Source: Vezdaea acicularis
Lineage: Eukaryota
Length of the DNA: 39,594 nt
NCBI GenBank assembly: GCA_026025075.1
Contig: JAPEUI010000063.1
Span: forward strand, 62,001 to 101,594
Direction of reading: 5' to 3'
The position numbers were made by a program, and so were the translations under genes. Numbering within the stretch: the stretch's first letter is position 1; every line of letters begins with the position of its first letter. Below are positions 879-38,998 of this stretch, piece by piece. The notes beneath the pieces were generated by a model. The model did not search any database, was not told where the DNA came from, and saw nothing but the letters and a program-made list of their open reading frames with translations.

Positions 879-1636
879 TCACAGGCCATGTGGTGGTCCG
901 CCCGAGCCATCTATACCAGACCCGACGCTTTTGCCCACACCCACGATTGGCTTATGGTCAGACGGATTAGCAGCAGCTTCGTATAAGACGCTGATAGGCT
1001 CCTTGTTCAGTTTTGTATGGTCTCCTTTGAAGCCTATATAAAAAATGCTCGTTTCGTCCTCCACTCCAGCACTCCAATTATCTTCAAAGAACAGTGTGAG
1101 CGATCGAGTCATATTGAACAAGGCTCGCTTTACTGGAATCTCTTGTATCGAAGAAGTCTGGGCAAGTTGGAGCGTTTGCGTTGGTGAAACATCGCTTGCA
1201 GCTGCAAAGTCAAGATCGTCGCGATTGATATAAATACGTAGGGTTTGCGGGGCAGAGGATGAATTCGAGGTACGAAATAGGATAGAATGTAGCTTGACTT
1301 GGCCTGCAAAACTATTGATAAAACCTTGGTCAAGAATTTCCTTTAATACAGGAGTGGATAGACGTACGGGATATACATGAGGAGCTGCTCATCAGCGTCG
1401 CTTTTGAGCTCTGGGTCTGCATTCATTCGTTCTTGCCACGATTTCTTGACAATAGCCTGGCCCGAATCAGGGATGCTTTCATTCAAAGTTGTGATATTGT
1501 CAAAATCTATTTCCTCGTAGATATACGATTGTAATGCTGGCGTAACATCATCAGTGTGATCATGCTCGCCCCCGTGACCGTTGGGGCCATGGTCGTGGTC
1601 GTGGCTGGCGTGCTCGTCATGGCAATTGTGCGACAT
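879..1636 (-). CDS. PITH-domain (proteasome-interacting thioredoxin-like) protein; 2 exons (1636-1368, 1311-879)
   Basis: His-rich N-terminus MSHNCHDEHASHDHDH, then motifs SDADEQLLMYIPFAGQVKLHSI, YINRDDLDF and IFYIGFKG. 56-nt GTACGT..TAG intron 1367-1312 restores the frame. Confidence 0.9.
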
Positions 1637-2239: not shown

Positions 2240-3418
2240 TCAACGACCATTGTTCATTGGCGCCTCCGCTGCAGGGCCTTCTGGCGTGACGTACGCCTAA
2301 CTACGTTAGCTAGCATTCTCAATTTATAAAACCAACCCGTGTAGTATTCTACCTTGGTCATACCACCATCAACCACGAAGTCCGTGCCGTTTACAAAGCT
2401 ACTCTCGTCACTAGCCAGGAAAACCACAGCCTGTGCCTGCTCGATAGCTTCTCCAAATCGGCCTGTCGGAAAATGTATTTCTCGTCGAGCACGTTTAGCT
2501 TTGTCCTCACCTAACCAGTCTTGTAGAAGTGGCGTACTACACTAATAGTAAATTATGGTTTGAGACCAGAATAGATGTGCTCAGTACATACTTCAACGGG
2601 GCAGGACAGAGCGAATTGAACCGAAATCCCTCCCGAGCGTGTACTATGGCCAGTTCCCTTGTCATGGCTAACACAGCGCCCTTGCTTGCGGTATACGCAA
2701 GCTGTGGTGTTGCAGCTCCCATTAGTGCAACGACACTCGCAGTATTAATAACACTGCCTCGCTTCTTGCGATGCTTTCGTAGAGCAATTACACCGTGCTT
2801 GCAGCCAAACCACACGCCCTTGACGTTGATGTTGTGAGTAAGGTCCCATACGGATTCAGGGGTCTCTATGGCATCGGCGTCGGCGCTATGCATGATACCG
2901 GCGTTGTTGAAGAGAACATCGAGACCGCCCCACTCATCCATCGACTCAATTGCGGATGCTACAGATGCCTCTACACTGACATCACAAACAACGCTAGAGA
3001 GCTTCCCATGACTAGGGACGACTGACTGAAGCTTTCGGACTGCGACTTCCAGGCCAGGGGCAGAGACATCCGTCATAAGCACATTAGCACCTTCCTTAGC
3101 AAAGAGAATTGCAGTCTCCAGTCCAATGCCCCTGTAATATTTTAGCAAGGTAGCAATCTATTCTCTTGGTGGGGAGTAAAGCTGGACTGAGCAAAAGGCT
3201 TCAAGTGAGAGGCGCAGCAACGAACATCCACACGAGAGAGATCATGAATCTGGAGAGCACCAAGAGCAGCAACGGTTTGGTACTAACTTTACCCGCGGGC
3301 TGAGACTCTGACGTATATTCCCCCTAAGCTTGCAGATAGAAAAAGCGTGAAAAGAGCAATCCAGCACCTACCCTGCAGCACCTGTGATCATTGCGTTCTT
3401 TCCTTCGAGTCGACCCAT
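2240..3418 (-). CDS. Short-chain dehydrogenase/reductase (classical, probably NAD-dependent); 4 exons
   Basis: Spliced start [19 protein letters not shown] (TGxxxGIG), NNAG, catalytic YTASK, C-terminal [11 protein letters not shown]. Introns 3371-3132, 2591-2537 and 2352-2297 are all GT-AG and frame-preserving. Confidence 0.92.
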
Positions 3419-4342
3419 AGTCACGGAAGAGATGTTGAACTCTTACTTGCGTAGGGTATTCAGGAAGTTGAAGTCCTCTACTGGTGTGGAACTCAATGGA
3501 GGAGCACAGAAGTCGTAAGATTAAAAAATGAAAAAGAGGTGTCCGCGTAAGATGTCTGTTATGCTCAGTCGCATCTACAGCCTTGAGCAGGTAACAGATA
3601 CCTCTTACGTACTTGCTAAGCAAGATAACGACTCTCAAAGGAGGAATGAATCTATTTCCGTTGACTCAGGTCAAGCAATCAAGCGTTGGTGAGATCCTGG
3701 CGTTGGGGATTTGATGGTGGTGGAATAGCCAACGTGTCGGATTCTCGTGAAATTCCTATCGGAATGAACCGGGTAACCAGTGAATATGGAGAATAGGATG
3801 TGATAAGATTTCGGCTTAGATAAAGCACTGACACAGCTTCAAACATTCCAAAAATACGAACTAAGCTTGAAGTACTGCTTCGACTAGCATTCGTGGTAGG
3901 GTGCACAAAGCCCGCAAGCTGGAAGCTACACGAAGTCCGCCCAGCCAAAGGACGGAGAAATGGCACTGACGAGACAGCTTTCAACCATATGGCTTATCCA
4001 TGGAAACTGCAGAGCACAGTCGACTTATTTCAAAGCGATCAAGCAATCTGCACACTTGAACATCCCATGATGCTCATTCATATGGGCCTGGGGACTTCGT
4101 TGCCGCATGAATGCCATGGGAACTTACTCTGACGTATGAGACGATAAGCTTCCGCCGAGCTTAAGCTCCGTAGTTGCGACTAGAGCTCCACCAACCCCTC
4201 ATCGCACTTACACGTACGACATGTCTTGCGACAACTAGATGACTTTGTTGAACTGCACACAAGGGCTAAGAGTTCACTTTTGCCAGTTCCAATGAAATTC
4301 GCCGCACCCTCAATATACTTTGAGCCCTAATCTTTAAGTAAT
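3419..4342. promoter_or_regulatory. Divergent promoter region of SDR and GS-like gene, with candidate GATA (AreA-type) and bZIP (CpcA/AP-1) sites
   Basis: HGATAR at 3623, 3756 (minus strand), 3801, 3818 and 4142; TGACTCA at 3662-3668. Function is inferred only. Confidence 0.4.
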
Positions 4343-5938
4343 ATGCCTGGCCTCACCTCGGAGGGGCTCCCCGAGCTCCTCAGAGATGACACAAAGGTTA
4401 AACTTGCTGGAGTCGATGTCGATGGTATGCTCCGTGGAAAATTAGTTACCAAGAAAAAGTTCCTTTCTGTAGCCAAAGATGGGTTCGGCTTCTGCTCGGT
4501 CATCTTTGGCTGGGATATGCATGATTTGACATATTTTAAGGAATTGAGAATTAGTAACAAGGAGAACGGCTACAGAGATATGCTTGCGATGCCAGATTTG
4601 AGTAGTTTTCGAAGAATTCCATGGGAAGACAATGTACCTTTCTTCCTGGTTAGCTTCCTCGATCCTGACACCTTAGAGCCTATAAGTGCTTGCCCACGGG
4701 GGTTACTAAAGCGGATGCTGAAGAGGCTTGAGAAAAAGAAATGGGGCGCAATGGCTGGAGGTAAGATTCTCTACAAAGGGTTCAAGGCATGGCCTACAGC
4801 TAGGGGTCTTTAAGTTGGGCTCACACTAACCCGAAATGCGGTCCTCTAGCGGAGTATGAATTCTTCCAATTTCGAGTTCCAAGCTCAATCGATGGCCTGG
4901 CAGCTGAGCGTAACTCATCTTCAACGGCTACGTTCCTCCGAGATAAACCGGTGGACACGCTACCGTCTCTCACAGAGGGTATGTTTGGGTATAGCTTGAC
5001 AAGACCTGTACACAACCAAGATTACTATTATGGTATATTTGACGCATGCGAGAAGTTCAATTGTGGGATTGAGGGTTGGCATACAGAAAGCGGACCGGGT
5101 GTTTATGAAGCTGCTCTTGAGTTTGGAGAAATCGCGGGAATGGCAGACAAAGCAAGCCTCTTCAAGTTCGTCTTCCTCCCCTTCTCAAACTCCAAAGCGA
5201 GATTTAACTATTCCTAGGTATGTCGCCAAATGTATTGGCAGTAAACATGGTATAACCCCCTGCTTCATGGCCAAACCACGCCAGGGTCTTCCTGGAAACT
5301 CCGGACACATGCACATCTCCCTTGTCTCCTCCTCAGGAGAGAACCTTTTCTACCGTGGCGCCAAAGACCCGAACCCACCATATCCTGACCTGGCGCACCT
5401 CTCCAATATGGGGCGTCACTTCCTTGCTGGCCTTCTCGAAGGTTTGCCGGACGTCATGCCTCTAGTAGCCCCAACAATAAATTCCTATAAACGCTTAGTC
5501 GAGAACTTCTGGGCTCCTGTAACCGTCTCTTGGGGTCTTGAGCATCGCGCTGCCTCTATCCGCTTGATTGCACCGCCAACGTCTAAGCCAGGAGCCACCC
5601 GCTTCGAGGTTCGCGTCGCCGGTGCAGATGCAAATCCGTATTACGTGCTTGCCGCTATTCTGGCAATGGGCTGGCGTGGTGTGGAGAAAGGGCTGGAGAT
5701 CACCGTTCCACCTCTGGGGAAAGGGGAGGACGTGGGCGGGGCGGCTGATAAAGGGGTTAGGCTTGCAAAAAGTCTCAAGGAGGCGAACGATAGGTTTATG
5801 CGGAAGGAGAGTCTAGCGCGGGAGGTATTTGGTGACGAGTTTGTGGAGCACTTTGGAGGCACGAGGGAGCACGAAGTAAAGCTTTGGGAGGAGGCAGTCA
5901 CTGACTGGGAGGTAAAGCGATATATCGAGACAGTATAG
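4343..5938 (+). CDS. Glutamine synthetase-like protein (GSI-like gamma-glutamyl-amine ligase); 3 exons
   Basis: Motifs DVDGMLRGK, AEYEFF, HTESGPGVYE, GNSGHMHISL, NSYKRLVENFWAP, WGLEHRAASIR and RFEVRVAGADANPY. Introns 4761-4849 and 5166-5217. Confidence 0.93.
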
Positions 5939-7249: not shown

Positions 7250-7954
7250 TCATGCACCCTCATGATCTTCTTGTAGATATATAGGAAGCTTCGCTACGAT
7301 GACTTCAACAATCTGCGTCCATTCTTTCATAGCCCCGTCACCCACGTCCCCACAGGCCAGAGTTTTCTCTATTGGCCTTAACACTTCAACCCATCCATCG
7401 TCACCTCCCCAATCTTCCTCTAACAATTTGATATGTTTCTTCGTAACAGGATGCCTCCACATGCCCGTATTCATAGCTGGCGCCACAACTATCTTCTTTG
7501 GTTTCTCCCTTCCCTCAATCTCGCCCGTTGTATCCCATGCACGGATAACTGACAGCAATAAGTTATCACTAAACCCTCCAACCATCTTGGCCATGGAATT
7601 CGCAGACAGTGGTGCTACGACTAAGATGTCTGCCCAGCGCCGTAATTCGATGTGCAATATCGGATCACCGCGGCGCCAAGGTAACTTCCACTCATCCTCA
7701 TCGAGATGAACACCGTCGACATTCGTCATCCGGCCTAGCTCTTCCAGTGTGACTTGCTCCGGACTCTGACCTCCAAGGAATCTCCGCGCGGGCTCGGTCA
7801 GGAGAAGGCGAATTGAGGTATTGCGGTATTCACCTAGTTTACGCACGATGTTAAGGATCTTGATGGTCGCTACGGAACCGCTAGCAGCGAGGAGGATGTG
7901 CTTTTTGCCAGAGTTAATATAGTCCGATGCTTTGAAAACCTGTTGCGTCGGCAT
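7250..7954 (-). CDS. Phosphopantothenoylcysteine decarboxylase (Hal3/Cab3 HFCD flavoprotein)
   Basis: Intronless 234-aa ORF with LLAASGSVATIK, LHIELRRWAD, APLSANSMAK, PAMNTGMW and LACGDVGDGAM (catalytic His and Cys both present). Confidence 0.93.
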   Translation of the reverse strand: MPTQQVFKASDYINSGKKHILLAASGSVATIKILNIVRKLGEYRNTSIRLLLTEPARRFLGGQSPEQVTLEELGRMTNVDGVHLDEDEWKLPWRRGDPILHIELRRWADILVVAPLSANSMAKMVGGFSDNLLLSVIRAWDTTGEIEGREKPKKIVVAPAMNTGMWRHPVTKKHIKLLEEDWGGDDGWVEVLRPIEKTLACGDVGDGAMKEWTQIVEVIVAKLPIYLQEDHEGA

Positions 7955-8800
7955 GGTCGCTCAGTGTGTGTTGATTCCTCATGTCCGTATGGTAACAAAG
8001 GAACCCTCCAGAGCATGCAAGACAGTAAACGACATCGCGCTTGCGACTGTGCTGCGCAAGGCCACACGCGTAGATGAGATACAGTTCTCACGTTAGACGG
8101 CCCTTTTCCTTCGGCTGTCAAACTAGCTACGCGCCATGGCCGTAGGAGGTTCCCTTAGCACCGTAATCAATACGTCTGGCGGGAACCGGCAGACTAAAGG
8201 ACCTTGCCCTGGGACCCGCATCCTATTCCGTCACCGCACAAATTCTACCCGCAGCTATCAAGCGGCTATTAGCGGTTGAACTTTCGAGATGGCCGTCTAC
8301 AAGACTTGCGCCCTCCCCTTGATGACTATCCCCAATGCTAAAAGATTTGATGCCGTGTATCCGGGCCGTGATTCTACCGATTTACTTCGAGCCAGCCTCT
8401 AGGAAACGTTCATTGTGGCCATATCTTTAATTTCGGAAGATCCCAACTGAGCAGGTCGCTGCCGCGGGCTGAGTCGCGTTCGCCACTGATAGGATGGAAC
8501 CCCTCAATTGAAGCATAACGCCCTGTTAGCTGCGGCGATTTGTCTTTTAGGGGCAGGATCCTCTTGATAAGAGAATAATTTCTTTACTGAGGCGTTCGCT
8601 CCATGTGTTGTGGCGTCATTGAACACACTGGTTCAACGGCTATTTAAGTTCTCTCTAGCTCCCCCACCCTGCTATCACTGGTGACACACATTTCACAACA
8701 TCTTTTTTCTCATTGAAAGAAATCAGTCTTTCAAGTCGAATCCTTCCAAGACGTTGATATAGATCAGCAGACCCCATTTCCCATTCATCAAACAATCAAT

Positions 8801-10177
8801 ATGTCTCCCTCAGCTATAAGCCCAGTGGAGACCCCAATTCTTGTTAAAAAGGGCGTCTCCTCATTACTAACCTCCACCGCCCCCTCCATCACTCCCTCAA
8901 CAAACATCTCTACTGCAGCATCACACCTCTCCGAACTCAATGCCTCACTCCTCCATACGACCCCTACGGATTCTCCGAAAATCGTCCCTGCCTTGTCCTC
9001 CCCCGAGATCCTCAGTGGAAACAGCTGCACCGATCACATGCTAACCGCGAACTGGACCTCCACCACAGGCTGGGCGCCCCCGCACATCCTCCCATATGGC
9101 CCCCTCTCTCTTGAACCTACTGCTTCCGTCCTACATTACGCAACAACCTGCTTCGAAGGGATGAAAGCTTACCGGGGCCACGATGGCCAAATACGACTCT
9201 TCCGCCCTAGTCTGAACTGCAGTCGTATGGTCTCCTCTGCAAGCCGTATCGCCTTACCAGCCTTCGATCCGCGTGAGCTCGAGAAGCTAGTAAAAGCATT
9301 TATTGCATACGAAGGACCAAAGTGGCTCCCGAAGAGTCGACCCGGGACGTTCTTATATCTCCGTCCGACCCTGATTGCGAACTCGGCAGCGCTAGGTGTC
9401 TCCACGCCGAACGAGGCGACCTTATTCATCGTCGCGGCGTTCCTCCCCTCCATTGATGAACACCCTGCTGTCCCTCTACCCTCATCCGGGCATATAACTC
9501 CTCAGATGCGCCGCGCTGCCAAGCCGGGTCTTAAGCTGCTCGCCTCATGCGAAGACAGCATCCGCGCGTGGCCCGGCGGGTTCGGGTACGCAAAGGTCGG
9601 CGCGAACTACGCCCCGAGCCTGATCGCTCAGGCAGAGGCTAGAGCATCTGGGTACGATTCCGTGCTGTGGTTATTCGGGCAAAATGCGGAGGTTACGGAG
9701 GCAGGAACAAGTAACTTCATGGTTGTACTAAGAAGTAGGGAGGGGCGCAAGCAATTAAAGACGGCACCGCTTGGGGACAAAATCATTCTGGACGGAGTGA
9801 CGCGGCGGAGCGTTTTGGAGCTTGCGAGGGAGCGGCTTCGGGGTGAGCTGGAGGTTGTGGAGGAGAAGTTTGGAATGGGCGAGGTGGTTGAGGCAGCAAG
9901 AGAGGGGCGGTTGGTGGAAGCGTTTACGTGTGGGACTGCGGTAAGTTTTCGCTCTGAATGCATGAGGGGTATTTGACGGACTGAACACTGATATTATATT
10001 ATGTAGTACTTCGTAAGTGCCGTGAGCGAGATTAACTACCGTGGCGTGGATCTGGATGTTCCGCTTGCGGAAGGGAACATTGGGACTTATGCTAAGGCTA
10101 TTAAGAACTGGCTAAGGGATATTAAGTATGGAAACGTGCAGCATCCATGGGGAGTTGTGATCGGGGAGGTAGAGTAA
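8801..10177 (+). CDS. Branched-chain amino acid aminotransferase (class IV PLP enzyme); 2 exons
   Basis: LHYATTCFEGMKAY, LYLRPT, GYAKVGANY (PLP lysine), EAGTSNF, ILDGVTRRS and TCGTA. Intron 9941-10006; exon 2 ends IKYGNVQHPWGVVIGEVE*. Confidence 0.94.
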
Positions 10178-12642
10178 GTAAAAGGCGGCCGAAAATGGGA
10201 ATGTTGACGTGATGGTTTACGGAAAGGTTAATGGGAGATTTCGGAGCACTCTACTAAGCTAGCGGGTGGGCCCAAGAGGATTCACATAAAAACAACTGGT
10301 TAAAGGCGTTGACGGATTCACGGACAGGATCGCTTGCACAATGCGACGAATCCAATGTATACACAAATTGAAAAGCCACTTTCGACTGGAAGAGATATAG
10401 GCTTGACGTCACAAACAAAGGCCAGTGGGCAATGTGTGAAGTGATGGGATGATGATACGTCGAGAGAGAGATCTGCATCTACGGAAAATCTATGTGGCCG
10501 TGTGTGCTTGAATACGACCATGAGCGGTTATGCAGCAACCCACATGTGACTGACGCATCGAGTCTCGAGCCACCCACCGGCTCACAGGTATGGATCACCC
10601 GGAATAAAGGAAATGATGCCACGGTTTATGCCCTTGTCAATCATCGCGTCTCTGGACCCAGTAGCGTCCCTTACCTACCATAGATGAAGCATCTGCTCAT
10701 CGGATTCACCGGCTGAAAGCAGATTGGCAGGGAGGGGGTGGTCATAGCTTGACAAGGCTGCAGGATCGTTCAGTGAGCGTGCGTGACAGGCCGGATCAGG
10801 GAATTCGAGGAATCGTCACGAAGCTCCGGCGATGCCCTTGCGCCATTCGGCGCGAGAGTAAGGCCGTACGGGGGTGGCTGAATGCTATAAGGCAGATGTT
10901 GTAAGCCAACAAGGTGGACAGAGCGTTTCGACAACGTTGATTGATCGCCTTGTTAACAAGGGAGTGCATGGCGCCCTACGCACTGAGACCCGGGAAAGAT
11001 CTTGTCTGGCAGACAGCAAGTAAAGCAAGAAACGATAGTCTGATTCATAAGAGAGTGAGGGAGGGGTATGCCGGTATAGGCAATCCAATTGGGGTCCTGG
11101 CATTAGAGAGTCTGTCTGTTAGGACCAATGATAGGGTACAGACCAGTCGGTCAACCATGCCGGCCTCAGAGATATAGCTGCATACCGAAACTGCCACATC
11201 TCGTACAGATGACAAGCAAGAGGCCTGGGTGAGAATCCTTTCGTTCATGGCGGGTATCAACAATAGAGGCGCCGTCTTATCAACTCGTCCCTCCTAGTTC
11301 CAATGCTTCATGATGATTCATTCGCCGAATAGATCTGAATCGGCTGGGCCGAGGCAAATACCGTGTTGCATGGGAGCTGAAAGAACTGATGCTGAAACCG
11401 GACGAAGGTCGTTGAGCCTCGGCGATGCCCAATTTGTTCTACTCGTAAGGGAAGAGAAACTATCCTGCGGTAACACCCCTAGCACAGCGCCTGTCCCCCT
11501 CGAACGCCATACCCTTAATTTTTATAAAGCCCCGAAAGTCAATTCAAAAGCGTGACCGTACGCAGGGATCTTTCCCCGGGCATCATACTTAGTTCGTTGG
11601 CCGCTCAAATTTCCTTGAATGGTGATATGGAGGTGTTCTGGAGCTGTAACGGCATAAGGAGCGCGATGAAAAGAATTCGGGCTTTGCCGCTGCACGTGGG
11701 ATTACGCGCCGTTTACAGGGCTAGTCAAGCATCCACGTCCCTCAGTGTTCGACTCCCGCTCATCAACACGAGCCCGATACACGGGTTCGCATCTGCCATA
11801 TCGCGGAGACCCGATCGATCGGCGTCAGATTCGGCAAAGGCGTCCGACTGAGGGCACGGGCACTTGGAGAGCAATCATTCGCGTGACATCTCACATGAGA
11901 TGTCTTGTTCCTGAGACGGGTCTGAGAAACTCCAACGCTGTACCAAGACAGAGTTGACGGATCTTGGATCTTCTCGAGTTCTTTTGTTGTCTTGTTTTAA
12001 TACATCTACTCTGCCTATTGCCCCTAGCGTGAGCACCTGTGCCTCACTTCGCACGCTCCGCGTTCTTCAAGCTCAACCCTTGGGAAAGCCCAAGGCGGAC
12101 CACCATTGGAAGGGAGTAGCATATCCCACGTTTAGGAAGGTTTGTGTTCAACACGGCTTGCTCTCTTCGCTGGTGTGGTGGGGGAATTGAGGGGCAGCAG
12201 TTGAGACAACCCTGCGCTGTCAACACGCCAACCGCCAATAGGGGCATCGTCAGCGGGCCTCGGTCACCATCCTCCTGCGGGAGACACGGCTAGGGTGAGT
12301 GACAAGCAGAATTGCATAGCATCATCATTTGCCTGAAGGCAAACCAATGGAAGATATGCGTCGCCACTTCTTACCCCATCTTGCATTCTCCGAGCCCCCA
12401 TCTTCATTTCACCCGCCGGCTTCAGTGCGCCCCGCTCTTTCTTTCTGCCCGCTCGTCGGTCGATGCTGTCCGTATCGACTCTTCGAGGCTATATCTGTCT
12501 GCTTTCCGCCCCTTTCTCTTCCACTCTATCCTAGATTCTCCTCGATTACGATAACACTTTTACTATTCGCTTTTCTCAACTTGTTTACACCTCCTTTTCA
12601 CGTTCACATTTCGTTCACGAAGTCCAAAATATCGCATACAGG

Positions 12643-12945
12643 ATGTCTAGTAATGGAGCAGCAGCAAATATCACCATCCAAAACGCTCTAGATATCGTCC
12701 GTAGCTGTAACGGAGAGCAAGTTGATCCCGCTGTGACTGCTCTCTTGAACCAATTTGTTGCAGAAATCTGGCAACGCATCGGCCCTGAACCATCTTCTTA
12801 TATTCTGACTCAACTAGAGTTCGCTGTATTCAATTTCTATCAGGACAGATTTAGGGAGTACCCCGCCTATCGCGCCGCCATTGGCCGCTTCTGGACCCAT
12901 TACGGGTACACTGGGCAGAACGGCGCTGCCGGGGCTCAGTCTTAA
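12643..12945 (+). CDS. 100-aa hypothetical protein (probably a small helical fungal protein)
   Basis: ATG-initiated ORF after a pyrimidine-rich 5' region. It has protein-like amphipathic segments (ITIQNALDIVR, VAEIWQRI, YILTQLEFAVFNFYQDRF, AIGRFW). No family assigned. Confidence 0.7.
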   Translation: MSSNGAAANITIQNALDIVRSCNGEQVDPAVTALLNQFVAEIWQRIGPEPSSYILTQLEFAVFNFYQDRFREYPAYRAAIGRFWTHYGYTGQNGAAGAQS

Positions 12946-13107
12946 ATTAAAGACGCATCGTTGTCGCGAGATAGGAGCCTCACACGCGGCAACGGTTTAT
13001 CCTCCATAGGCTCCTCCCTAGCACGTTCTTCAAGCGACATAACGAAGCTAGGATACGTCAATTGCCAGAAAGGGATCATTACCCTAAGTTTCCAAGACCC
13101 CTTCACC

Positions 13108-15427
13108 ATGGCAAGAACACCTACCGGGCAGGCCCAGTCAATTCCCACCAGCCCGGATGACCTCAACGTATCTCCTCCATCCAAACTTCCATCCTCACTT
13201 GGCTATGCTAAAGGGATGCATCTAAGTAGCATCGTCCCCTTCATCCAAGGCAAAAAAGGAAATATCCTGTCGGAGCGCTCGAGAGCCGGTACTAGCTCGC
13301 GCTTCTGGAACATCTCATCAAGGCGATCAACTGCAATTTTCTTCGCTTTACTAATCCTCTACCTGTGGCGATTTCATCTGCAGACATTTTTAATCACTTC
13401 GCAAGATCACTCTGTATTTGGCCCAGATATCAAGAATATCCACTCCCGACCGAGTAAGGAAGTATTGCTCGATGTTTTCCAGGTCCGAGAACCTGTTCCT
13501 ACGATTCCTAGTGCATCTCTACAGCCCGTGGATTCGGACGGGTCCTACACACAGACCGATGGTGCGCCTCAGACAGTGTCTCACAGGAGGGATGACTGTA
13601 CTAGAAGCTTGATGGAACACTCTTTCGGGTTCAGTTACGGGATCCCTTTCATTGGTATTTGGTTCTTCGCCTCCTTCTGCTTTCGGTGCTAATGGTATGT
13701 CAGGTAATTATGCACCACCAAGTTGCACGTTCGATAAGGTGACGATCAACTTCACTGTCACGTCAAGAGGACGCCAATTTGACCGATTGGGATCCATGTA
13801 TCTTGGTGACATCGAGGTGTTCAGGACCTCAACGGCGGAGCCTACTTACGATGGCATTCGTTGGGAGTACCTCAAAGATATGTCGCATTACCTGACCCTA
13901 TTTCGTCAACCTCAGAAGATCATCTTCGATCTCGGAAATCTCATAGACGACACATACACGGCTCCCTTCAATGCTACGCTAATCGCGACATTCTTCGCCA
14001 GCTCTGAGAAGACCAATGCAGCCGATGTTATCTACCCTATCTCAGCTCGAAGATCAGCAAAGGACGCCCCAAGCGCTTTCTCAGTACCTGGAGAGAATGC
14101 TTCTGTCTCTGTAGACTTCCCAAGGAATGTGCGACGCGCAGTTGTCTCCATTGCTGCGTGCGGACAAGGCGACGAGGAGTTCTGGTTTGGCAATGTTCCG
14201 CAATCGCAGATCGATGCATTTCCGGACATTGCTCCTATGTTCGGGTACTCTCCTTTTCGAGAGGTACAGCTCCTTGTTGACGGCAAGCTGGCTGGCGTCG
14301 TCTGGCCTTTCCCGATTGTGTTTACCGGCGGCGTTGTGCCAGGTCTCTGGAGACCCGTCGTCGGATTAGATGCATTCGACCTTCGAGAACACGAGATAGA
14401 CATCACGAGGCTTCTTCCAAACCTATGTGATGGAGATCCTAAAGGTCACACTTTTGAGATTCGAGTCGTTGGCATCGATGATACGGACGACGCCCCACCT
14501 ACCCTTTCAAAAACTGTCGGTCAACGTTGGGTCGTCTCTGGCAAGATCTTTCTGTGGCTAGATGAACCTGATCACATCACCGTCGGACAAGTGTACGATC
14601 CATTCTCTGACCAGGTGCAGCTTCTTATGCAATCCTCTGTTGGGCAGAACGACGCTGGCAAGAACATCTCCTTGACATTTGATACCTTTGCGACGAGGAT
14701 CTACACCCAGTTTTCTACCTTATACACGTCGACCGGTGCAAGCAGTGTGTCCTGGCGACAAGTACTCTTTTACACAAATACAGCAAAGTTCACAGAGAAA
14801 GGCGCCGTCCAGCTCATTGAGCAGAATACGAGGGGGTATGACGCTGCTACAGGCTTCAACCCCTACGTCAAGGCTTACCACTACCCGATCTGGCTTAATA
14901 CATCGTTCCACCTCGATTCTAGGAGCGGAAACTTCACAATCGACGCGCCCATCGCTCGTGGTCTCTTTTTAGACACGTGGGGCTCATCAGTCTTTCCTCT
15001 ACAACTTGACGCCTTCCCAAACTTCAAACCTTGGCCAAACGACACCGTCTACGGTGCCGGCATTCACACAACGCAGAATGGAAGTGCGCATTACCTCGGC
15101 GTTCCATCCAAGAAGAGTGCGTACGGCTATGGCCAGACTGAGCAAAACTTCAGCTTTGAGGGCTTGCACACACCGCCTCGTTTTCGTGAAATCTCCCTGG
15201 ATGAAGTCTCAACCGCGTCGCCGTTCCCTGGGGAAGAACTGTACTTCCGGCATGTCCTTGCAGCAAATAACACAGTACTATCAGACAGGGAAAAGATATC
15301 TGGAAGTATAACGAGAGATTACTTCAACACAGACATACCTACCGAGAAAAGTTTGCAGCATGTTCAGTCACTAGATGTGCCTAGGTTACCACAACGGATT
15401 AAAAAGTTTCTTGGCATCCCGCGATGA
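13108..15427 (+). CDS. Peptide-N4-(N-acetyl-beta-glucosaminyl)asparagine amidase A (acidic PNGase A family); 2 exons
   Basis: CACCATGG start, hydrophobic anchor TAIFFALLILYLWRF, HSFGFSYGIPF, GRQFDRL, RTSTAEP, GDEEFW, SPFREVQL and PFPIVFTGGVVPGLWRP. Intron 13655-13703. Confidence 0.92.
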
Positions 15428-17261: not shown

Positions 17262-18061
17262 TCAAGCAGTCCCATCAATCTTAGCAGCCGTATCAGCGAC
17301 ATCAGCGGCTACATTAGCCTTGTCTTCGTCTTCTTTCTGTTCTGCAGACTTTACTTTCTGGACAGGAGCTCCATTGGCGGCAGAAGTAGAAGAATTGACC
17401 AACTTCTTGACGACTTCAACGGTAGCGGCAGGGCCACCAGGTTCGGAAGCCAGGACTTTTCCATGCTTGTCGACGACAAACACCCCGCGAGTGGTGCCAG
17501 CAGGAGCTTTCTTGAGTCCAATTGCTCCGATCAAAGTACGATCTTTGTCACAGAGGAGAGTATAGGGAAGCTTCTGCTTGGTCTTGAAGGTGGTGTTCGA
17601 TTTCGGCGAATCGTTGGAAAGACCATAGATGGAGAAGCCCGTGGCAGTGAGAGGTTCATAGGAGTCCCTAAAGAGACATGCCTGAGTGGTACCTATGCCA
17701 TAACTTAATAAGGCGTCATCTAAGAAGCGGGGTGGGACCTACATCCAGGAGTAGAAGCCTTGGGGTAGGTAAAGAGGACAACGCCGTTCTGGCTCTCATC
17801 AACAAGCTGCTTGAGGGTTGTTTTCTCTCCGTCGTGGGTCTCAACTTCTCCGCCAAAGCCCGCTAGGGTCAAGGTACTGCCAACACTAGTTGCGCCAGCG
17901 GCTTTTGCGCCATTGGTAGCAGCAGCGCCCTTCTTACCAACAACAGCTTCTTTAACTTTCTTTGCGGTATCTTTAATGGGGTTATTGGTCTTCTTCTTGG
18001 CGGGGGGAGCTGCTGCTGGAGGAGCGGCAGGAGCTTTGCGCTTTCGCAATTCGACGGGCAT
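17262..18061 (-). CDS. DOT5: BCP/PrxQ-type peroxiredoxin with basic N-terminal extension; 2 exons
   Basis: MPVELRKRK (NLS-like); FTYPKASTPGCTTQACLFRD (CxxxxC) formed across intron 17742-17693. Confidence 0.9.
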
Positions 18062-19148: not shown

Positions 19149-19780
19149 ATGAAAGTCTTCGAAGCAGACTGCACATTCAACTACTCCTGGGATGAAGTTT
19201 CCACCGGCGCCTGGCGTAAATATTGTCCCTGGAACGACAAAGTATCGCACGTGATAGCCGTCGACACGATATCTCGCACCGTCGATCCCAACACCGGCAT
19301 CGTACGTCTCTCTCCCCCTTCTGTTCATTCCCCCAAAGTCGTGATACTAACTCGTGATGACAGCTCCGCACAGAACGAATAATAACCTGCCGGCAATGCG
19401 CGCCGAAGTGGCTCACGCATATAATCGGGTCGGACCCAACCTCGCACGTCTACGAAACATCCTACGTTGACCCCGCCACCAAGAAGTTCACGATCTGCAG
19501 CACGAATCTGACATGGTCGAACGCACTGTCTGTCCGGGAATCAGTCGTCTATCGACCTTCGAAGACAGCGCCAGAGAGTCAGACGCAGTTCAAGCAAGAC
19601 GCGAAGATTACAGCCCTATGTGGTGGGTGGCAGAAGGTCAAGGATCGGCTGGAGGATATCACGGTAGAGCGGTTCGGTCAGAATGCACAGAAGGGACGAG
19701 AAGGTCTCGAGGCGGTATTGGAGATGAGCAGGAGGGTATTTGGAGAGGAAAAGGCGCGTAGAGAGGACCAGTTGGCGTAG
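19149..19780 (+). CDS. UPS2: PRELI/MSF1-domain mitochondrial phospholipid transfer protein; 2 exons
   Basis: MKVF..FNYSWDEVS..WRKY, HVIAVDT, LRTERIITC, STNLT and ERFGQNAQKGREGLE. Intron 19302-19363. Confidence 0.88.
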
Positions 19781-20238: not shown

Positions 20239-21869
20239 TTAGGAGGAGCCAATTTCACCCAACCGCAGAGCGAGAAGGGCTCGCACGTCTACAACATACT
20301 GCAGAGCTTCAAGCAGCGGGATAAGATGCAGGAGGTCGTTATCCGTCGGGTCGCTAATCCAACCTTCAATGGGAATCCCATTATCTGACCATGTCGTTAG
20401 CACGCCCTGCTCTCACATGTACATCTCAGAGCTGACTCACCCTCATGGAACGCATAGCTCGTTGGACTATTATCGACAATCATGACCTTACTCAAATCAG
20501 GCTCCACTGCAGACAGATCCTTGATATATGATCCATTCCGGAACGTGCAATGCTGCCTATAGTACCTCCCTGCAAAATATTTCCGGTCCTGCTCCAACCA
20601 GTCAATGACCGGGTCTGCATACTCCTGCACGCTCGCAGTAAACACAACGAGGTTGTACCACTTGCACACTTTCCGCAAGAATTCGTCGCAGTGGGGTCGT
20701 TTGTGTACATAGTACAAAATTGGGTGTTGAGGGCCAAAAGCCATTGCATTGAGCTTCACTTCGACCATGTGCCCGGTGCTCATACGACCACCTTTTGAAA
20801 GTGAGTGAATTAGTGTTTCGTCCAGATCGAGGATAAGTGTCTTTTGCGCGAGACGGGAGGTACTGGGGTCGGGGAAGGCGTATGAGGGTTGCCGGCGGGG
20901 AATCAGAGGTCGTGGGGGCTTGGGGATACGAGGGTATTTGGACAGGCCAGCAGAGGTGGGGGGGGAGGTTGGGGACTTGAGTGTTTCCGGGGAGATGGAG
21001 ATGGAGGGGTTGGAGGAGTCATTGGTGCTCATGGATGCAGTTCTTCTCTTCTTTGGTCGTTGGGTGTCGTCGTTGTTTAGTTTTATTCGAATGCTTCTGC
21101 GCATAGGCGCGCTGTCATCGCCTTTTTCAGATGATGACTTCGAGCGCGTATTATGTGACGGACTTCCTCTATCCGCTCTTCCATTCTTCGTTGACCTCTC
21201 CAGATCATCATCCGATTCCGATGTGAAAGCAGACGACGACGATGACGCGGAAGGCGATCTTTTGAGCGGTGGAGATTGTTGCTTTCGCCGCAGAGAGCGC
21301 TTTCCTTGACCTTTTGACAAAGACTTCTCGTTTAAGTCCATAGATCCTAGTGTAGAAGATTGTTGCACGGGTGTCCTTGTCTTGCTACTAGAAAGAAAGC
21401 GACCTGCGTTTCGCGCTGGTAGGAAAGGGGAAAAGTTGCCTTTGCTATCGTAGAAGCATGATATAACATAAACTCCAGGCGCCGCTAATGTCGAGAACAC
21501 CCATCTAATTGAGTCTAAGAGCGCGTTGATTATTCCTTTAGAGATCGATAGCCATGGGTGCGGCTTAACAAAGTCCGCTCTTGAATCTATATCCCGGTGT
21601 AACAGAGGTGTCTTTTCGTCAATGTTCCCTTGATCGATGTCGGCAACCTCTCTCTCGTTCACCTCGCTGATAGTTTCGCTAGAAGGCTTTGTGTTTCCAA
21701 CCTCTTTCTCAGCTGTTAGAGATGTAGGGCCATAACTAGACGTTCTGCGCGATGGCGACGGCCGTGTTCCTGCCTTTGTGAGGTCCGCATAGGACTGTGA
21801 GCGAGACTGGCCAGGGGTTCGGTCTGGGGTGCGAATGACGCGGGCGGAGATAAGATTCAATGAGTTCAT
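20239..21869 (-). CDS. NEM1: Nem1/CTDNEP1-type FCP1-like HAD phosphatase; 2 exons
   Basis: MNSLN start, hydrophobic segment near the N-terminus, KTLILDLDETLIHS, VHKRPHCDEFL, YIKDLS and IVDNSP. Intron 20440-20385, then DNGIPIEGWISDPTD. Confidence 0.92.
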
Positions 21870-21964
21870 GGTATGCTTCCTGCCATAGACAGTAGCAGCT
21901 TGCCAGTCTCCTGCTATCCCTTAGTCCTTAGACAACATAGCGCTGTTGCAATCAAGGTCTGAAT

Positions 21965-21986: not shown

Positions 21987-22531
21987 CGCTGCTGCTGTTT
22001 AAGACACTCGAATGTTCTGACGGTCTCCTACTCAAATCGTGCAAAGCGGAAATAAGGAGAGGATGGCCAATGACAAGGTACTCCTGGATGATCTAACTCT
22101 CAAAGGTTCATCCGGATCAGAGCCGACGAATGCAAGTATAGTGGTAGGGACAGGTTGAGGTGGGGGTGTAAAGGCTGGGAGTGTCCGGGTGATGCTGAAT
22201 GCGCTTTGCACTAAAAAGATCCCTGCAATTCCGGAAGCGAGCAAACAAGACATCAAAATATCGAACGCTTCATATTGGATGTAGCTCACGGAGTCCATTG
22301 CATGAATCGAGATCTTCCATTCCTTTAGCATGTACGGTACGACTGTCGCTATTCCCTATGATATTGGCGCAGGAAGGATTTGGTGCAGAAGTCATCCTCA
22401 TATCAATCTGCATCTTTGACTGAGTCGATTTAACTCAACGGAAGTGCCCTCTTGATTGGGAAGCTATAAGATTTGACCCCACCCCGCGCCCAAACGCAGT
22501 TCAATCTACCCCAGTCTCCTTCTCAGTCAAA

Positions 22532-24149
22532 ATGCCCTCCAAAACTGTAGCGATTCAGCCAGGCCTATCTTCGTTCCTCAAGTCTCTTCACGGCCAGTCG
22601 GTCGAGTCTGCTATCGAGCGACTTATATCGTAGGTACACACTGCCCACTATTTGAACCATTTCACTCACCCTTTATCCGCAGACTTCTGAAAAGGAGACA
22701 AATTCGGAGTTCAAGGGCTTGTGCGATAGCGACTGCGAACTTGCTGCTCAGAGTTGTGTCGGTCTTCAAATGGACGGATGTGCACCGTCTTATCGAAAGG
22801 ATCCGACAGGTTGGGCAACGGCTATGCACAGCGCAACCACGGGAGTGGGTTGTAGGAAACATTGTACGGCGCGTTCTAGGTCTTATTAGAGAAGAGGCAG
22901 AGGATGACAGAGACAAGGATGCCAGTAATTACAGCGACGCTGGGGAAAGTCATACAAGCTCACCTCATCGGAATGGCATCGATGATACACTAGCACCGCG
23001 GAGAGCTTTTCTACCTTCCAACTCCATCTTAAGTCCCTTTGGGCGGGGCGATTCTGTGGATACGAATATGGAAATCGGTAGTAGCGATACGGACGACTCT
23101 TCTCCACGTAAAGGAACGCCAGATATAATGTCTCGCCGACCTCCTCTATTGACATCACATACTTCCTACGCTCCTACTACCCCAGCTCCTATGGTAACTT
23201 CTATGTTTAACCTCTTCTCCGAGGCAGGTACTCCCTCTGGATTATCCTCACCAACACCTACAGGTGCGAATTCTCCAACGCACCGTACAGCCTTAACAAC
23301 ACAACACCTGGCGGGCCTTAATACACCTCCCGTCCGGAACATTAAATCCGACGTTGTAGAAGGCATCAAAGAGATCATCGACGAGATCAAACAAGCTCAC
23401 GACCAAGTCGCGGGCTACGCCCTTGAACATATCCATGATAATGAACGTATCCTGACTAGCACTGCCTCGCACACAGTTCTAGAATTCCTCCTGAAGGCGG
23501 CAAAGGAACGAAAATTTACCGTCATTTATGCAGAGTCATACCACAGCGACCACTTCACAGCAACTTCGGCTAAAACAGAACCTTTTACGGAGCCACGCGA
23601 TGACTCTAAGAGTAGTAGCGACGAGAACAGTCTGTCCACAGCCACATTTGCCAAGTCCCTGACAGCTGCGGGTATAACAGTCATCATCATTCCCGATTCG
23701 TCAGTTTTTGCTCTCATGTCCCGAGTCGATAAGGTTATCATAGGAACCCATGTTGTACTCGCAAACGGTGGACTAGTGGCTGCTGCGGGCGCTCGGATTA
23801 TCGCGAGCGCGGCGAAAAAGCATGCGAGGAAGGTCTTCGTAGTCAGCGGCGTGTACAAGCTCAGTCCAGTCTACCCTTTCGATGTTGAATCCTTGATTGA
23901 GTATGGAGGCGCTGGGCAAGTGGAAAAATATGAAGAGGGGGAAGACATGATGGATGCCGAAGAAGTGGAGAATCCGCTGTTCGACTACGTGTCGGCCGAA
24001 TTGGTGGACCTTTATATCACGAACCTGTGAGTGAGCTCGTACGTTGTATCGATCCATCTGCTAACGTTCGGCGAAGGGGTGGGCATGCACCATCTTACTT
24101 GTATCGAATAGTGTCAGACCATTACAGGAACGAGGATATAAATCTATGA
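22532..24149 (+). CDS. GCD7: Translation initiation factor eIF2B beta subunit; 3 exons
   Basis: LLKRRQI, VGNIVRRVLGLIREE, IPDSSVFALMSRVDKVIIG, GVYKLSPVYP and NPLFDYV..YITNL|GGHAPSYLYRIVSDHY. Introns 22630-22682 and 24027-24076. Confidence 0.93.
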
Positions 24150-37191: not shown

Positions 37192-38998
37192 ATGAAGGGG
37201 CTTCCAGTGCGTCACTGCGTTGAGCAGGTCGTGCCCTGGACATGCCGGCGATGCGTTCGAGCGAGGACTCAATTTCCTCCGCCAACCCAGTCGCGGCAAT
37301 CCTCCACTGTATGGCAGAAGCCTCGAAAACGACCAGGCGTGCGCATCGCATTATTAGCAGCCGCAGGAGGCACCCTCGGAGCGGGCGGGCTAGCTCTTAC
37401 GGACGATGCTAAGCATTACTATGGTGCGGCGGAGAGGTCAGGTCGGGTCCTGAGCACACTCGCTATATGCATCAATGAGTAGATGGAATGATTCAGCTGA
37501 TTGACTGAGCTAACATGGTCACACAGCTATCGTGTGACTCTAAACCACAAGACCGATGACCAGGAAGAGTACGCGGCGCTTCTCAAACAATGTCATCAAC
37601 GGTGTGCCGAGCGGACGCTCCGGGTGCTGGAAAAGAATGGGTCGATATTCATAAAGCTCGGACAGCATCTGAGCAGCATGAACTACCTTTTGCCCCTAGA
37701 ATGGACAACAACGTTCATTCCTTTGCAAGACAAGTGCCCCGTCTCACCCATTGAGTCGATTGAAGCGATGTTCCAGAAAGATACGGGTCAGACGATAGAA
37801 GAGCTGTTTATGGACTTTGAGCGCGAACCTATAGGGGCTGCCTCGCTGGCGCAGGTGCATATAGCCAAACTTAAGGAGACGGGGCAAAAGGTCGCAGTCA
37901 AGGTGCAGCACCCGGCACTGGAAGAATGGGTTCCTCTCGATCTAGCCCTCACAAGCTTCACCTTTTCGACGTTGAAACGAGTTTTCCCAGAATACGATCT
38001 GTCGTGGCTATCTGACGAGATGTCCTCCTCCCTACCTCAGGAGCTAGATTTTGTTCAGGAGGGGATAAATGCCAAACATGCGCGGGAATATTTCAGCCAT
38101 GTAAATGAGCCTTCTTTGGTTATCCCTGATGTCATCTGGGCGAAAAAGCGCATCCTCGTCATGGAGTACCTTGCGGGGCATCGCCCTGACGACCTGGATT
38201 ACATTGACGCGAATGGCATAGATCGAGATGAGGTGTCTGCGGCTCTCTCAAGAATATTCAATGAGATGATCTTCGGAGAGGACGCGCCTCTCCACTGCGA
38301 TCCTCATGGAGGCAATATCGCGATCCGCAAGAACACTCACCGCAGGAATCCGAACTTCGACGTCATCCTGTACGACCATGGATTATACCGTGACATACCC
38401 AAGGCTCTTCGAAGGTCGTATGCAAAACTTTGGCTTGCGGTCATAGATGCAGACGAGCCACGGATGCGCAAATACGCATATGAAGTGGCTGGGATCACTG
38501 ATGAACAGGTATGAGCTTCACGCCTCGACTCTGCCACTCTTGCTGACAAAAACATAGTTTCCGCTTTTTGCCAGTGCTATCACAGGACGTGACTATCGCG
38601 TACTAACAAGATCTGTGGCCGTCCCAAGATCAGACGAGGAGAAGGAGCATATATCAGAGGCAATGGGAGACGGCTTACTCCAACAGCTCGTGCAGCTCTT
38701 GGGGCAGGTTCCGCGAATCATCTTACTTATACTAAAGACCAACGACCTTACTCGCAGTTTAGACGAGAATTTACACACTCGTCAAGGGCCAGTGCGGACT
38801 TTCTTAATTCTGGCGCGATATTGCTCTCGGACGGTGTTCCAGGAGCAGATGGAAATCATCTCTCAGAATGGAGGTATCCTAAGACCGAGTAATCTAATAA
38901 GATTTTTAAGTGCATGGGGCACTTATATGAGGGTAGAACTAAAGCTATCGGTGTATGAATACTACATCTCTCTCAGGAGACTGGTTGGGGCGTCCTGA
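37192..38998 (+). CDS. MCP2: ABC1/UbiB-family atypical kinase (ADCK1/Mcp2-like, mitochondrial); 3 exons
   Basis: NGSIFIKLGQHL, PIGAASLAQVH, VAVKVQHP, ELDF, HCDPHGGN and YDHG. Introns 37479-37526 and 38509-38557. Confidence 0.85.

Follow-up and report, generated by a model that had tools for sequence, protein, structure and literature searches.

A conserved small gene directly upstream of PNGase A in Vezdaea acicularis: a probable dicistronic or overlapping gene unit of the Pezizomycotina

In Vezdaea acicularis, a gene for a small protein lies immediately upstream of a gene for the deglycosylating enzyme PNGase A, and comparison with related loci suggests that the two are probably an ancient dicistronic or overlapping unit. 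The 100-codon ORF would be a separately terminated and translated gene for a small, cytosolic, helical protein, arranged since ancient times head to tail with the gene for a putatively membrane-anchored PNGase A. Its TAA would be a true stop, and the reading frame common to both genes a coincidence. We infer the co-transcription and the mode of translation, whereas the protein family, linkage, spacing, stop, AUG pattern and the intron of one clade are observed features of the sequences. The window analyzed here is a 39,594-nt stretch of contig JAPEUI010000063.1 (assembly GCA_026025075.1); the features of the locus are collected in Table 1.

Table 1. Features of the small gene-PNGase A locus (positions within the window) and annotated gene pairs in other species.
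Feature	Position or gene IDs	Strand	Description
Small ORF	12643..12945	+	100 aa; TAA at 12943-12945; from ORF list and homology
Out-of-frame ATG ORF	12653..12691	+	12 codons, MEQQQISPSKTL followed by a stop; overlaps start of small ORF
Spacer	12946..13107	+	162 nt = 54 codons; without ATG, in-frame stop or canonical intron donor
PNGase A exon 1	13108..13654	+	~74-aa N-terminal tail, hydrophobic stretch, start of PNGase A domain
PNGase A intron	13655..13703	+	49 nt, GTATTT...CTAAT...CAG
PNGase A exon 2	13704..15427	+	PF12222 and PF25156
Sarcosagium pair	M1825_002780/81		consecutive gene IDs
Thelocarpon pair	M1838_006179/78		consecutive gene IDs
Chlorociboria pair	B7494_g259/g260		consecutive gene IDs
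Zymoseptoria tritici pair	four strains		consecutive gene IDs; in IPO323, MYCGRDRAFT_50591 / MYCGRDRAFT_22021
Elasticomyces	four pairs		consecutive gene IDs

An earlier note on this DNA had described the end of the small ORF, its distance to the PNGase A ATG, the frame common to both ORFs, the stop-free spacer codons and the 12-codon ORF opened by the ATG at 12653; all of these were re-derived and agree. Between positions 12300 and 13300, plus-strand ATGs occur at 12347, 12356, 12463, 12643, 12653, 13108, 13157, 13205 and 13216, which bears out the ATG-free interval of 12656-13107 and leaves 12653 as the sole further ATG between the two gene starts. The stop of the small ORF is a TAA followed by A; an ATTAAA (12946-12951) abuts it, and a 12-bp hairpin is predicted at 12957-12996.

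The downstream gene is a clear member of the acidic PNGase/PNGase A family, as had been proposed. Both Pfam domains are present, the catalytic region (PF12222, 2.6e-128) and the C-terminal domain (PF25156, 9.7e-13), and the product is 756 aa long after removal of one intron. The donor and acceptor of this intron keep the frame open and join Pfam profile positions 32 and 31; a 42-54 nt gap marks the same site in many related loci and is absent from five (L024, L035, L042, L052 and L056). A hydrophobic stretch was located by eye, without a predictor, near residues 75-97. Residues ~105-182 can be aligned to homologues and the N-terminal tail is poorly conserved; the closest named homologues, from Trichoglossum, Geoglossum and Glutinoglossum, are 58-59% identical.

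Judged by its homologues, the small ORF is a genuine conserved protein-coding gene, as the earlier note had supposed, and belongs to an unnamed Pezizomycotina family of ~100-aa proteins predicted to be helical. A HMMER search of 1.84e9 representatives returned 328 cluster representatives at E<=1e-3 and 74 at E<=1e-10, mostly 80-170 aa long and mostly stand-alone, and a profile search gave 420 matches at E<=1e-5. These homologues are distributed across the Pezizomycotina, with Trichoderma, Cercospora and Fulvia among the genera that have the small gene, and W43, Y53, E59 and W84 are invariant. The AF2 model (pLDDT 79.5) places helices at residues 12-21, 29-46, 57-65, 67-70 and 74-89. Searches with the protein matched no Pfam family and gave no usable match in the ESM Atlas, and a Foldseek search of the PDB with the model gave nothing at E<=0.001 (best 2.8). 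Of 20 database proteins scanned, 10 combine the domain, at their N-terminus, with a Zn2Cys6 domain. Each of the 80 metagenome copies is closed by a stop, at 87-143 aa when counted from the start codon nearest the alignment start, and all but two of them at 87-107 aa.

In these metagenome loci, which were gathered with a narrower alignment and are biased to copies carrying EFAVFN[FY][YF], PNGase A follows the small ORF directly on the same strand in 31 of 80 cases. Dereplication at 90% identity gave 22 linked clusters, 12 unlinked clusters and 8 too short to decide, which corresponds to linkage in 22 of 34 decidable clusters. Additionally, the pair carries consecutive gene IDs in five annotated species (Table 1), and 13 of 120 annotated PNGase A models contain the small ORF fused on as an N-terminus. 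Linked copies are dispersed over the entire tree of the small protein family, suggesting that the linkage is ancestral. In 18 of 19 distinct loci, the first PNGase A ATG follows the small ORF stop at a distance of 9-344 nt (median 167); the remaining locus has 1639 nt. The tandem linkage and short spacer expected by the earlier note in other Pezizomycotina thus recur in distant relatives; homologues without PNGase A, which it regarded as counter-evidence, make up 12 of the 34 decidable clusters, against 22 that are linked.

Downstream of the unlinked copies, 41 ORFs searched against Pfam gave one match, a FAD monooxygenase 1.3 kb away at a single locus (L076). No downstream ORF was common to the unlinked locus groups, and neither a Zn-cluster motif nor a tblastn match was found there. 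A literature search found no account of a small ORF in linkage with PNGase A.

The start of the small ORF had been described as weak, the first half of a "weak-then-strong Kozak" signature. This description does not hold: the window's start (c-a-g-g-ATG-t) has A at -3, and among 40 dereplicated loci a purine occupies -3 in 39 and G occupies +4 in 26. The proposed AUG depletion stood in part, in that an ATG-poor leader recurs in relatives, whereas depletion of the whole small ORF is confined to some lineages, the window's included. Since the small ORF has 3-5 ATGs in 12 of 21 linked loci and, in 8 of 19, the ATG closest ahead of the PNGase A start is that of a conserved in-frame Met near nt 183, depletion of the whole ORF is no family rule.

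Of the 682 ATG gaps on the plus strand of the window, none exceeds the 455 nt seen here, but this interval is weak as a window-wide outlier because comparable gaps of 447 and 414 nt (plus strand) and 485 nt (minus strand) are also present. A test of the single interval is stronger, with 1 ATG observed against ~6.2 expected from shuffles (4.2 + 2.0). Across loci, the small ORF has 0.52 of the expected number of ATGs, compared with 0.73 for the spacer and 1.06 for the PNGase coding sequence. Permutation of synonymous codons gave 35 ATGs against 42.1 expected in linked copies (P 0.045, as with all P values here optimistic because the loci are phylogenetically related) and 27 against 21.2 expected in unlinked copies. 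The last fifth of the small ORF contains no ATG in 21 linked loci versus 7 ATGs in 12 unlinked ones. The ATG-free run ahead of the PNGase A start has a median of 221 nt versus a background gap of 39 nt; it is at or above the 95th percentile in 12 of 19 loci and extends into the small ORF coding region in 14 of 19. When these 19 loci were scored after removal of the predicted intron, the nearest ATG upstream of PNGase A, apart from the Met near nt 183, was the small ORF start itself in four and lay 10 or 22 nt past it in the window and L024; five retain spacer ATGs.

The intron in question is a feature of one clade, in which a predicted canonical intron begins 5-25 nt past the small ORF stop. 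A strict splice donor within 36 nt downstream of the stop occurs in 11 of 14 loci of this clade and in 0 of 27 others, with a chance expectation of 0.03 per locus. In five linked loci with the intron, 12 of 13 spacer ATGs fall within it, and its acceptor lies 25-147 nt upstream of the PNGase A ATG. The intron is also found in three of the 12 unlinked clusters and therefore may belong to the small gene's own 3'UTR. Near-identical contig pairs displayed no spliced/unspliced difference. A search of 16 spacers for IRES-like or reinitiation structure gave a mean z of -0.5; a 191-nt stretch of the window reached z -2.88, with a structure that is not conserved in relatives. A sigma-70/terminator scan gave nothing above shuffles, and these bacterial signals are irrelevant to a eukaryote.

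With regard to mechanism, the AUG-free leader of PNGase A would extend back into the small ORF and, in the window, through all of it; the PNGase A mRNA therefore most likely has its 5' end within the small ORF or upstream of it. The products would be a dicistronic mRNA and possibly a shorter one, initiated at a nested start site and carrying PNGase A alone. On the dicistronic mRNA, the small ORF would be translated by most ribosomes because its AUG context is strong, leaving PNGase A to the minority that bypass that AUG by leaky scanning or reinitiate, such that the small ORF would both encode a protein and throttle PNGase A. For the same reason (purine at -3 in 39 of 40 loci), leaky scanning would be inefficient, and reinitiation after 100 codons is generally poor. 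Counted against a dicistronic unit are also the ATTAAA directly past the window's stop, the spacer ATGs in 5 of 19 loci and the 12 of 34 clusters that are unlinked.

The same observations would fit two independent, tightly packed genes, which we regard as a real possibility though not the favored one. The small gene would end and PNGase A would start within the spacer, with UTRs overlapping at most; the adjacency would be kept by a PNGase A promoter in or near the small gene or by co-regulation, and the ATG-poor zone would be the PNGase 5'UTR together with a low-complexity C-terminal tail. Separate annotation in five species, the strong start context typical of an ordinary gene, the ATTAAA and the 12 clusters with a small gene and no PNGase A all agree with independence, as does the density of fungal genomes, in which 3' and 5' UTRs are often reported to overlap and spanning reads to be rare. 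However, a 3'UTR, terminator, promoter and 5'UTR would hardly fit into spacers of 9-344 nt, and the 3' ends of unlinked copies do not show the ATG-free run that enters the small ORF in 14 of 19 loci. In the intron-bearing clade, a small-gene transcript that stops short of the PNGase ATG would have no more than 25-147 nt for the exon following the intron. Additionally, same-strand adjacency is kept across many annotated genera and in loci scattered over the family tree, and such conserved adjacency is unusual for unrelated fungal neighbors.

A more ambitious extension of the dicistronic unit is doubtful: that the mRNA is obligately dicistronic throughout the Pezizomycotina and that the small protein (cytosolic, helical, often beginning with Met-Gly and possibly myristoylated) is a partner or regulator of membrane PNGase A. 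If true, such a role could explain the inactivity of fungal pngA expressed alone, and no deeply conserved pair of translationally coupled genes would have been described in filamentous ascomycetes before this one.

It is very unlikely that PNGase A begins with the small ORF as its first coding exon, with an intron removing the stop and the domain forming a cytosolic N-terminus. Fused gene models exist, the domain can be part of a larger protein (the Zn2Cys6 proteins), and one locus (L046) has no in-frame ATG ahead of the PNGase hydrophobic segment. Nevertheless, a stop closes the domain in 80 of 80 loci and in the window, canonical donors sit past the stop where they are present, the final 100 nt of the window ORF showed no consensus donor on inspection by eye, and most database members stand alone at ~100 aa.

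Programmed readthrough of the stop, yielding a fusion of the small domain with PNGase A through the open spacer, was raised by the earlier note and is most improbable. The arrangement of the window, with both ORFs in one frame and 54 open spacer codons, is found likewise in L047 and L052, and the 13 fused database models are compatible with it. Against this, the frame is common to both ORFs in only 4 of 21 distinct loci, fewer than the third that chance would give, and three have an open spacer. The window's stop is TAA followed by A, an efficient termination context, and a search of 120 PNGase A proteins at E<=10 found no homologue of the spacer peptide. The fused models join at varying points and often cut the domain short, which is typical of gene-predictor artefacts, and their linkers do not align. 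The chance of an open spacer is ~0.075, close to the earlier value of about 0.07; combined with the common frame, the prior odds are ~1/3 x 0.075, and the combination is not conserved in relatives. In the window it is accordingly read as chance, and a readthrough fusion is not supported, with every copy stop-terminated and frames matching in those 4 of 21 loci. Finally, the idea that the ORF arose by chance in the 5' leader of PNGase A, with nothing but its small size in favor, is practically negligible and already refuted: its homologues number in the hundreds and share invariant residues, and the helical model is confident.

Overall, the small gene-PNGase A pair is a candidate conserved dicistronic gene for filamentous ascomycetes, backed by comparative genomics; species for which long-read RNA data are public, such as Zymoseptoria tritici IPO323, allow it to be tested directly. 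The analysis also brings an unannotated protein family to notice and flags a recurrent annotation error, the fusion of the small ORF onto 13 of 120 PNGase A models. Were the genes merely to overlap, they would still be a well-documented and unusually persistent pair. For the biology of fungal acidic PNGases, co-expressing the upstream ORF with the enzyme offers a concrete lead: N. crassa pngA, a filamentous-fungal acidic PNGase, is reported to have no deglycosylating activity alone in yeast, and the available text of that account mentions no upstream small ORF (bioRxiv 10.64898/2026.03.25.714127).

Green-algal nuclear bicistronic loci, reported to be translated by leaky scanning (PMC7896298; PMC11291117), resemble the fungal pair in having two conserved same-strand ORFs with a short inter-ORF distance and often different frames, in lacking a conserved IRES-like structure and, for some of the fungal loci, in avoiding extra AUGs between the two starts. 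Co-transcription is reported as demonstrated for the algal loci, whereas for the fungal pair it is inferred. Algal ORF2 output reportedly rises as the ORF1 Kozak context weakens (PMC11291117), whereas the fungal ORF1 context is strong, and complete AUG depletion of ORF1 is, unlike in the algal loci, confined to some fungal lineages. A conserved polypeptide encoded in a leader, potentially both protein and translational brake, is also described for the upstream-ORF proteins of animal bicistronic mRNAs (PMC13303939) and for plant conserved-peptide uORFs (PMC3426882). At 100 aa the small protein equals the longest of these peptides; unlike them, it is also found as a gene of its own, with no PNGase A, and as one domain of Zn2Cys6 proteins.

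Within fungi, polycistronic or readthrough transcripts have been reported from Agaricomycetes (PMC4503453), Fusarium graminearum (bioRxiv 10.1101/2021.11.08.467853) and Zymoseptoria tritici (bioRxiv 10.1101/2023.04.26.537486), the last with 224 polycistronic loci, and as described they share with this pair the tandem same-strand arrangement and probably also UTRs that overlap or abut. According to the available text of the two long-read studies, most polycistronic reads are rare readthrough from genes with overlapping UTRs (bioRxiv 10.1101/2023.04.26.537486; 10.1101/2021.11.08.467853), and the reported transcripts are mostly of low abundance, their genes also being transcribed independently. 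Conservation of the Agaricomycete gene pairs is reported to fall outside the class (PMC4503453), whereas the small gene and PNGase A are kept together across many Pezizomycotina genera. Unlike the reported fungal transcripts, this pair also carries a translation-level signature, the AUG-free leader.

The small ORF is a genuine gene with its own stop codon. A word-based search with it found no match beyond the ORF itself; HMMER, run against 1.84 billion cluster representatives, returned 328 proteins at E<=1e-3 (74 at <=1e-10), mostly of 80-170 aa, and a profile search returned 420 family proteins at E<=1e-5, named in the databases solely as 'hypothetical protein' or, in error, as 'PNGase A'. 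Genera among the profile matches include Coccidioides, Aspergillus, Fusarium, Trichoderma, Colletotrichum, Zymoseptoria, Hortaea, Cercospora, Rutstroemia and Chlorociboria, along with several lichen fungi. Four residues (W43, Y53, E59 and W84) are invariant in the family alignment. No Pfam family was found for the small protein, and its AlphaFold model is a four-to-five-helix bundle (pLDDT 79.5) for which a PDB structure search gave no significant neighbour. About half of the family starts with Met-Gly (24 of 40 loci, and 58 of the 118 short proteins taken from databases), and a myristoylation-like N-terminal pattern fits about a third; the window's protein starts with Met-Ser. Since Gly2 is frequent, the common G at position +4 relative to the start may stem from this residue rather than from initiation context.

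The small ORF and PNGase A are an ancient tandem unit. Scanning metagenome contigs with the family pattern yielded 80 loci (L-numbers), in all of which the ORF, counted from whichever start codon is closest to the alignment start, stops after 87-143 aa (87-107 aa in all but two); in 31 of them PNGase A lies directly downstream in the same orientation. Collapsing the loci at 90% identity left 22 linked clusters, 12 unlinked ones (no PNGase A in 1000 nt or more of sequence behind the small gene) and 8 too short for a decision; the tandem linkage that the earlier note had proposed to test in relatives holds in the first group, whereas the unlinked homologues that it named as contrary evidence make up the second. 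Consecutive gene IDs were found in Sarcosagium campestre, Thelocarpon superellum, Chlorociboria aeruginascens, four Zymoseptoria tritici strains (including IPO323) and four Elasticomyces elasticus pairs, and the two IDs are two apart in two Rutstroemia genomes. In the family tree, which was built on 105 columns and is poorly resolved (33 of its 60 inner branches are open), copies linked to PNGase A turn up in all parts, with unlinked copies nested among them, so we read linkage to PNGase A as the likely ancestral state. No description of the pair was found in the literature searched. L002-L018 and L029 (17 loci, 5 clusters, related contigs) carry the small gene without PNGase A behind it; what they share 0.9-2 kb downstream is a region that looks multi-exonic and matched no Pfam family.

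Features of the window, with the support for each
Feature	Position	Strand	Basis
PITH	879-1388	-	Pfam
Short-chain dehydrogenase	2537-3157	-	Pfam
Glutamine synthetase	about 4331-5938	+	Pfam
Flavoprotein	7250-7960	-	Pfam
Aminotransferase IV	8717-9976	+	Pfam
Small ORF, 100 codons, TAA stop	12643-12945	+	ORF list
PNGase A gene, 756 aa	ATG 13108; sole intron 13655-13703 (49 nt)	+	Pfam
AhpC/TSA	17262-17738	-	Pfam
PRELI	19361-19780	+	Pfam
NIF phosphatase	20397-21920	-	Pfam
eIF-2B family	22477-24030	+	Pfam
Protein kinase	32587-33069	+	Pfam
ABC1 kinase-like	37501-38514	+	Pfam

PNGase A was identified by PF12222 (2.6e-128) and PF25156 (9.7e-13); its nearest named relatives, from earth-tongue fungi, share 58-59% identity, indicating a poorly sampled source lineage. 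In the window, 162 nt separate the small-ORF stop from the PNGase A ATG, the two ATGs share a frame, none of the 54 spacer codons is a stop, and the sole + strand ATG between the two starts (12653) opens a 12-codon out-of-frame ORF. The sequence thus agrees with the earlier description of the 100-aa ORF and its surroundings, except that the upstream Kozak context, described there as weak, is not weak: it has A at -3. The 455-nt ATG-free run is the longest among 682 + strand gaps in the window; the window has further runs of 447 and 414 nt on that strand and one of 485 nt on the - strand, making it weak as a window-wide outlier. The ATG scarcity is stronger as a single-interval test (1 observed vs about 6.2 expected from shuffles). 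Upstream, the flank at 11900-12642 is also poor in ATGs (none in the 447 nt of 11900-12347, then only three) and C/T-rich from about 12380; C/T-richness is frequent in fungal core promoters and leaders. The small ORF lies about 2.7 kb from the aminotransferase-IV ORF, with no Pfam-supported ORF found between them. A 12-bp hairpin is predicted at 12957-12996, beginning 12 nt past the TAA, and the 191-nt stretch around the spacer has a folding z of -2.88 (0 of 200 shuffles as good); no consistent structure was found across the spacers of 15 other loci.

The short spacer recurs in relatives, a point that the earlier note had proposed to test: with PNGase start codons assigned by rule, and with four rows lacking an assignable PNGase ATG and the duplicates L027 and L040 left out, the small-ORF stop and the first in-frame PNGase ATG are a median of 167 nt apart; of 19 distinct loci, 18 have 9-344 nt and one has 1639 nt. 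Pooled observed/expected ATG ratios (17 loci) are 0.52 for the small ORF, 0.73 for the spacer and 1.06 for the PNGase coding sequence. Linked copies hold 26 out-of-frame ATGs at synonymous sites vs 38.5 expected from PNGase codon usage, and 35 vs 42.1 under within-ORF permutation (P 0.045, the loci being mutually related), whereas unlinked copies show no depletion (27 vs 21.2 expected); the final fifth of the ORF contains no ATG in 21 linked loci vs seven in 12 unlinked loci. ATG-free runs 5' of the PNGase ATG have a median of 221 nt vs a background gap median of 39 nt, with 12 of 19 at or above the background 95th percentile. Going 5' from the PNGase ATG, the first ATG met is the start of the small ORF itself in 4 of 19 loci, lies 10 or 22 nt past that start in two (the window and L024), is an in-frame Met conserved near nt 183 in eight, and falls in the spacer in five. 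ATG depletion spans the whole small ORF in about 9 of the 21 linked loci, including the window, and not in the others.

From these patterns we lean slightly toward a PNGase A mRNA whose leader would include the small ORF, wholly or in part. For the window, a true dicistronic mRNA would be the leading form because the whole interval is almost ATG-free; for linked loci without whole-ORF depletion, a PNGase start site within the small ORF would fit the ATG pattern equally well. That the pair are instead two independent, compact genes is possible, at rather less than even probability. The dicistronic reading is weakened by the patchy whole-ORF depletion, by the relatedness of the loci and the rule-based assignment of PNGase starts, and by the following. 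Firstly, the small-ORF start context is strong across the family, so that leaky scanning would be limited to a minority of ribosomes, and reinitiation is generally inefficient behind an ORF of 100 codons. Secondly, an intron following the small-ORF stop is retained in three unlinked loci, and may therefore be a 3'UTR feature of the small gene.

This intron, which also counts as indirect support for a shared or overlapping transcript, is marked by a strict donor at most 36 nt past the stop in 11 of 14 loci of one clade vs 0 of 27 others (chance in that range, 0.03 per locus), followed by branch and acceptor signals; the acceptor lies 25-147 nt before the PNGase ATG, and 12 of the 13 spacer ATGs of five linked intron-clade loci fall within the intron. 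It is absent in the window. In three related loci (L024, L036, L041) it contains two conserved motif copies about 45-50 nt apart with a palindrome-like core, TGCGATCG (GCTTGCGATCG), in diverged flanking sequence. The window's PNGase A intron, at the start of the domain, has a counterpart in most loci (gaps 42-54 nt) and is absent in L024, L035, L042, L052 and L056, where two tblastn segments abut, which suggests lineage-specific loss or gain.

A spliced fusion with the small ORF as exon 1 is very unlikely, as canonical donors, where present, lie 3' of the stop. Readthrough fusion as the normal product, also raised by the earlier note, fares slightly worse still: the frames match in 4 of 21 distinct linked loci and the spacer is open in three (the window, L047, L052), no more than chance, so the shared frame is a coincidence. 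Each of the three stop codons occurs among the loci, the window's TAA is followed by A, an efficient termination context, and no homologue of the spacer peptide was found. The small domain does appear at the N-terminus of 13 of the 120 best PNGase A homologues (E 6e-9 to 3e-22), with joins that vary in position and often truncate it, the pattern expected if gene predictors bridged a stop; this comparison was the key result for the linkage of the two genes. The small domain is also N-terminal in database proteins with a fungal Zn(2)-Cys(6) domain about 110-200 residues in, found in 10 of 20 proteins scanned (P0125, P0140, P0165, P0174, P0186, P0197, P0220, P0221, P0258, P0265); these copies form one clade (support 99) and could be either true fusions or another bridged stop. 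In L046 the PNGase frame is open from within the small ORF, already encoding the hydrophobic segment with no in-frame ATG ahead of it, which could reflect a faulty assembly, an intron that was missed or initiation at a non-AUG codon. A chance ORF is practically excluded by a family of hundreds with invariant residues.

According to the available part of one report, the acidic PNGase of N. crassa had no activity when expressed alone in yeast (bioRxiv 10.64898/2026.03.25.714127). In the available parts of long-read work on Z. tritici and F. graminearum, most fungal polycistronic reads are described as rare readthrough from one gene into another whose UTR overlaps with it (bioRxiv 10.1101/2023.04.26.537486; 10.1101/2021.11.08.467853), and to that extent these systems weigh against a dicistronic reading of the small ORF and PNGase A.
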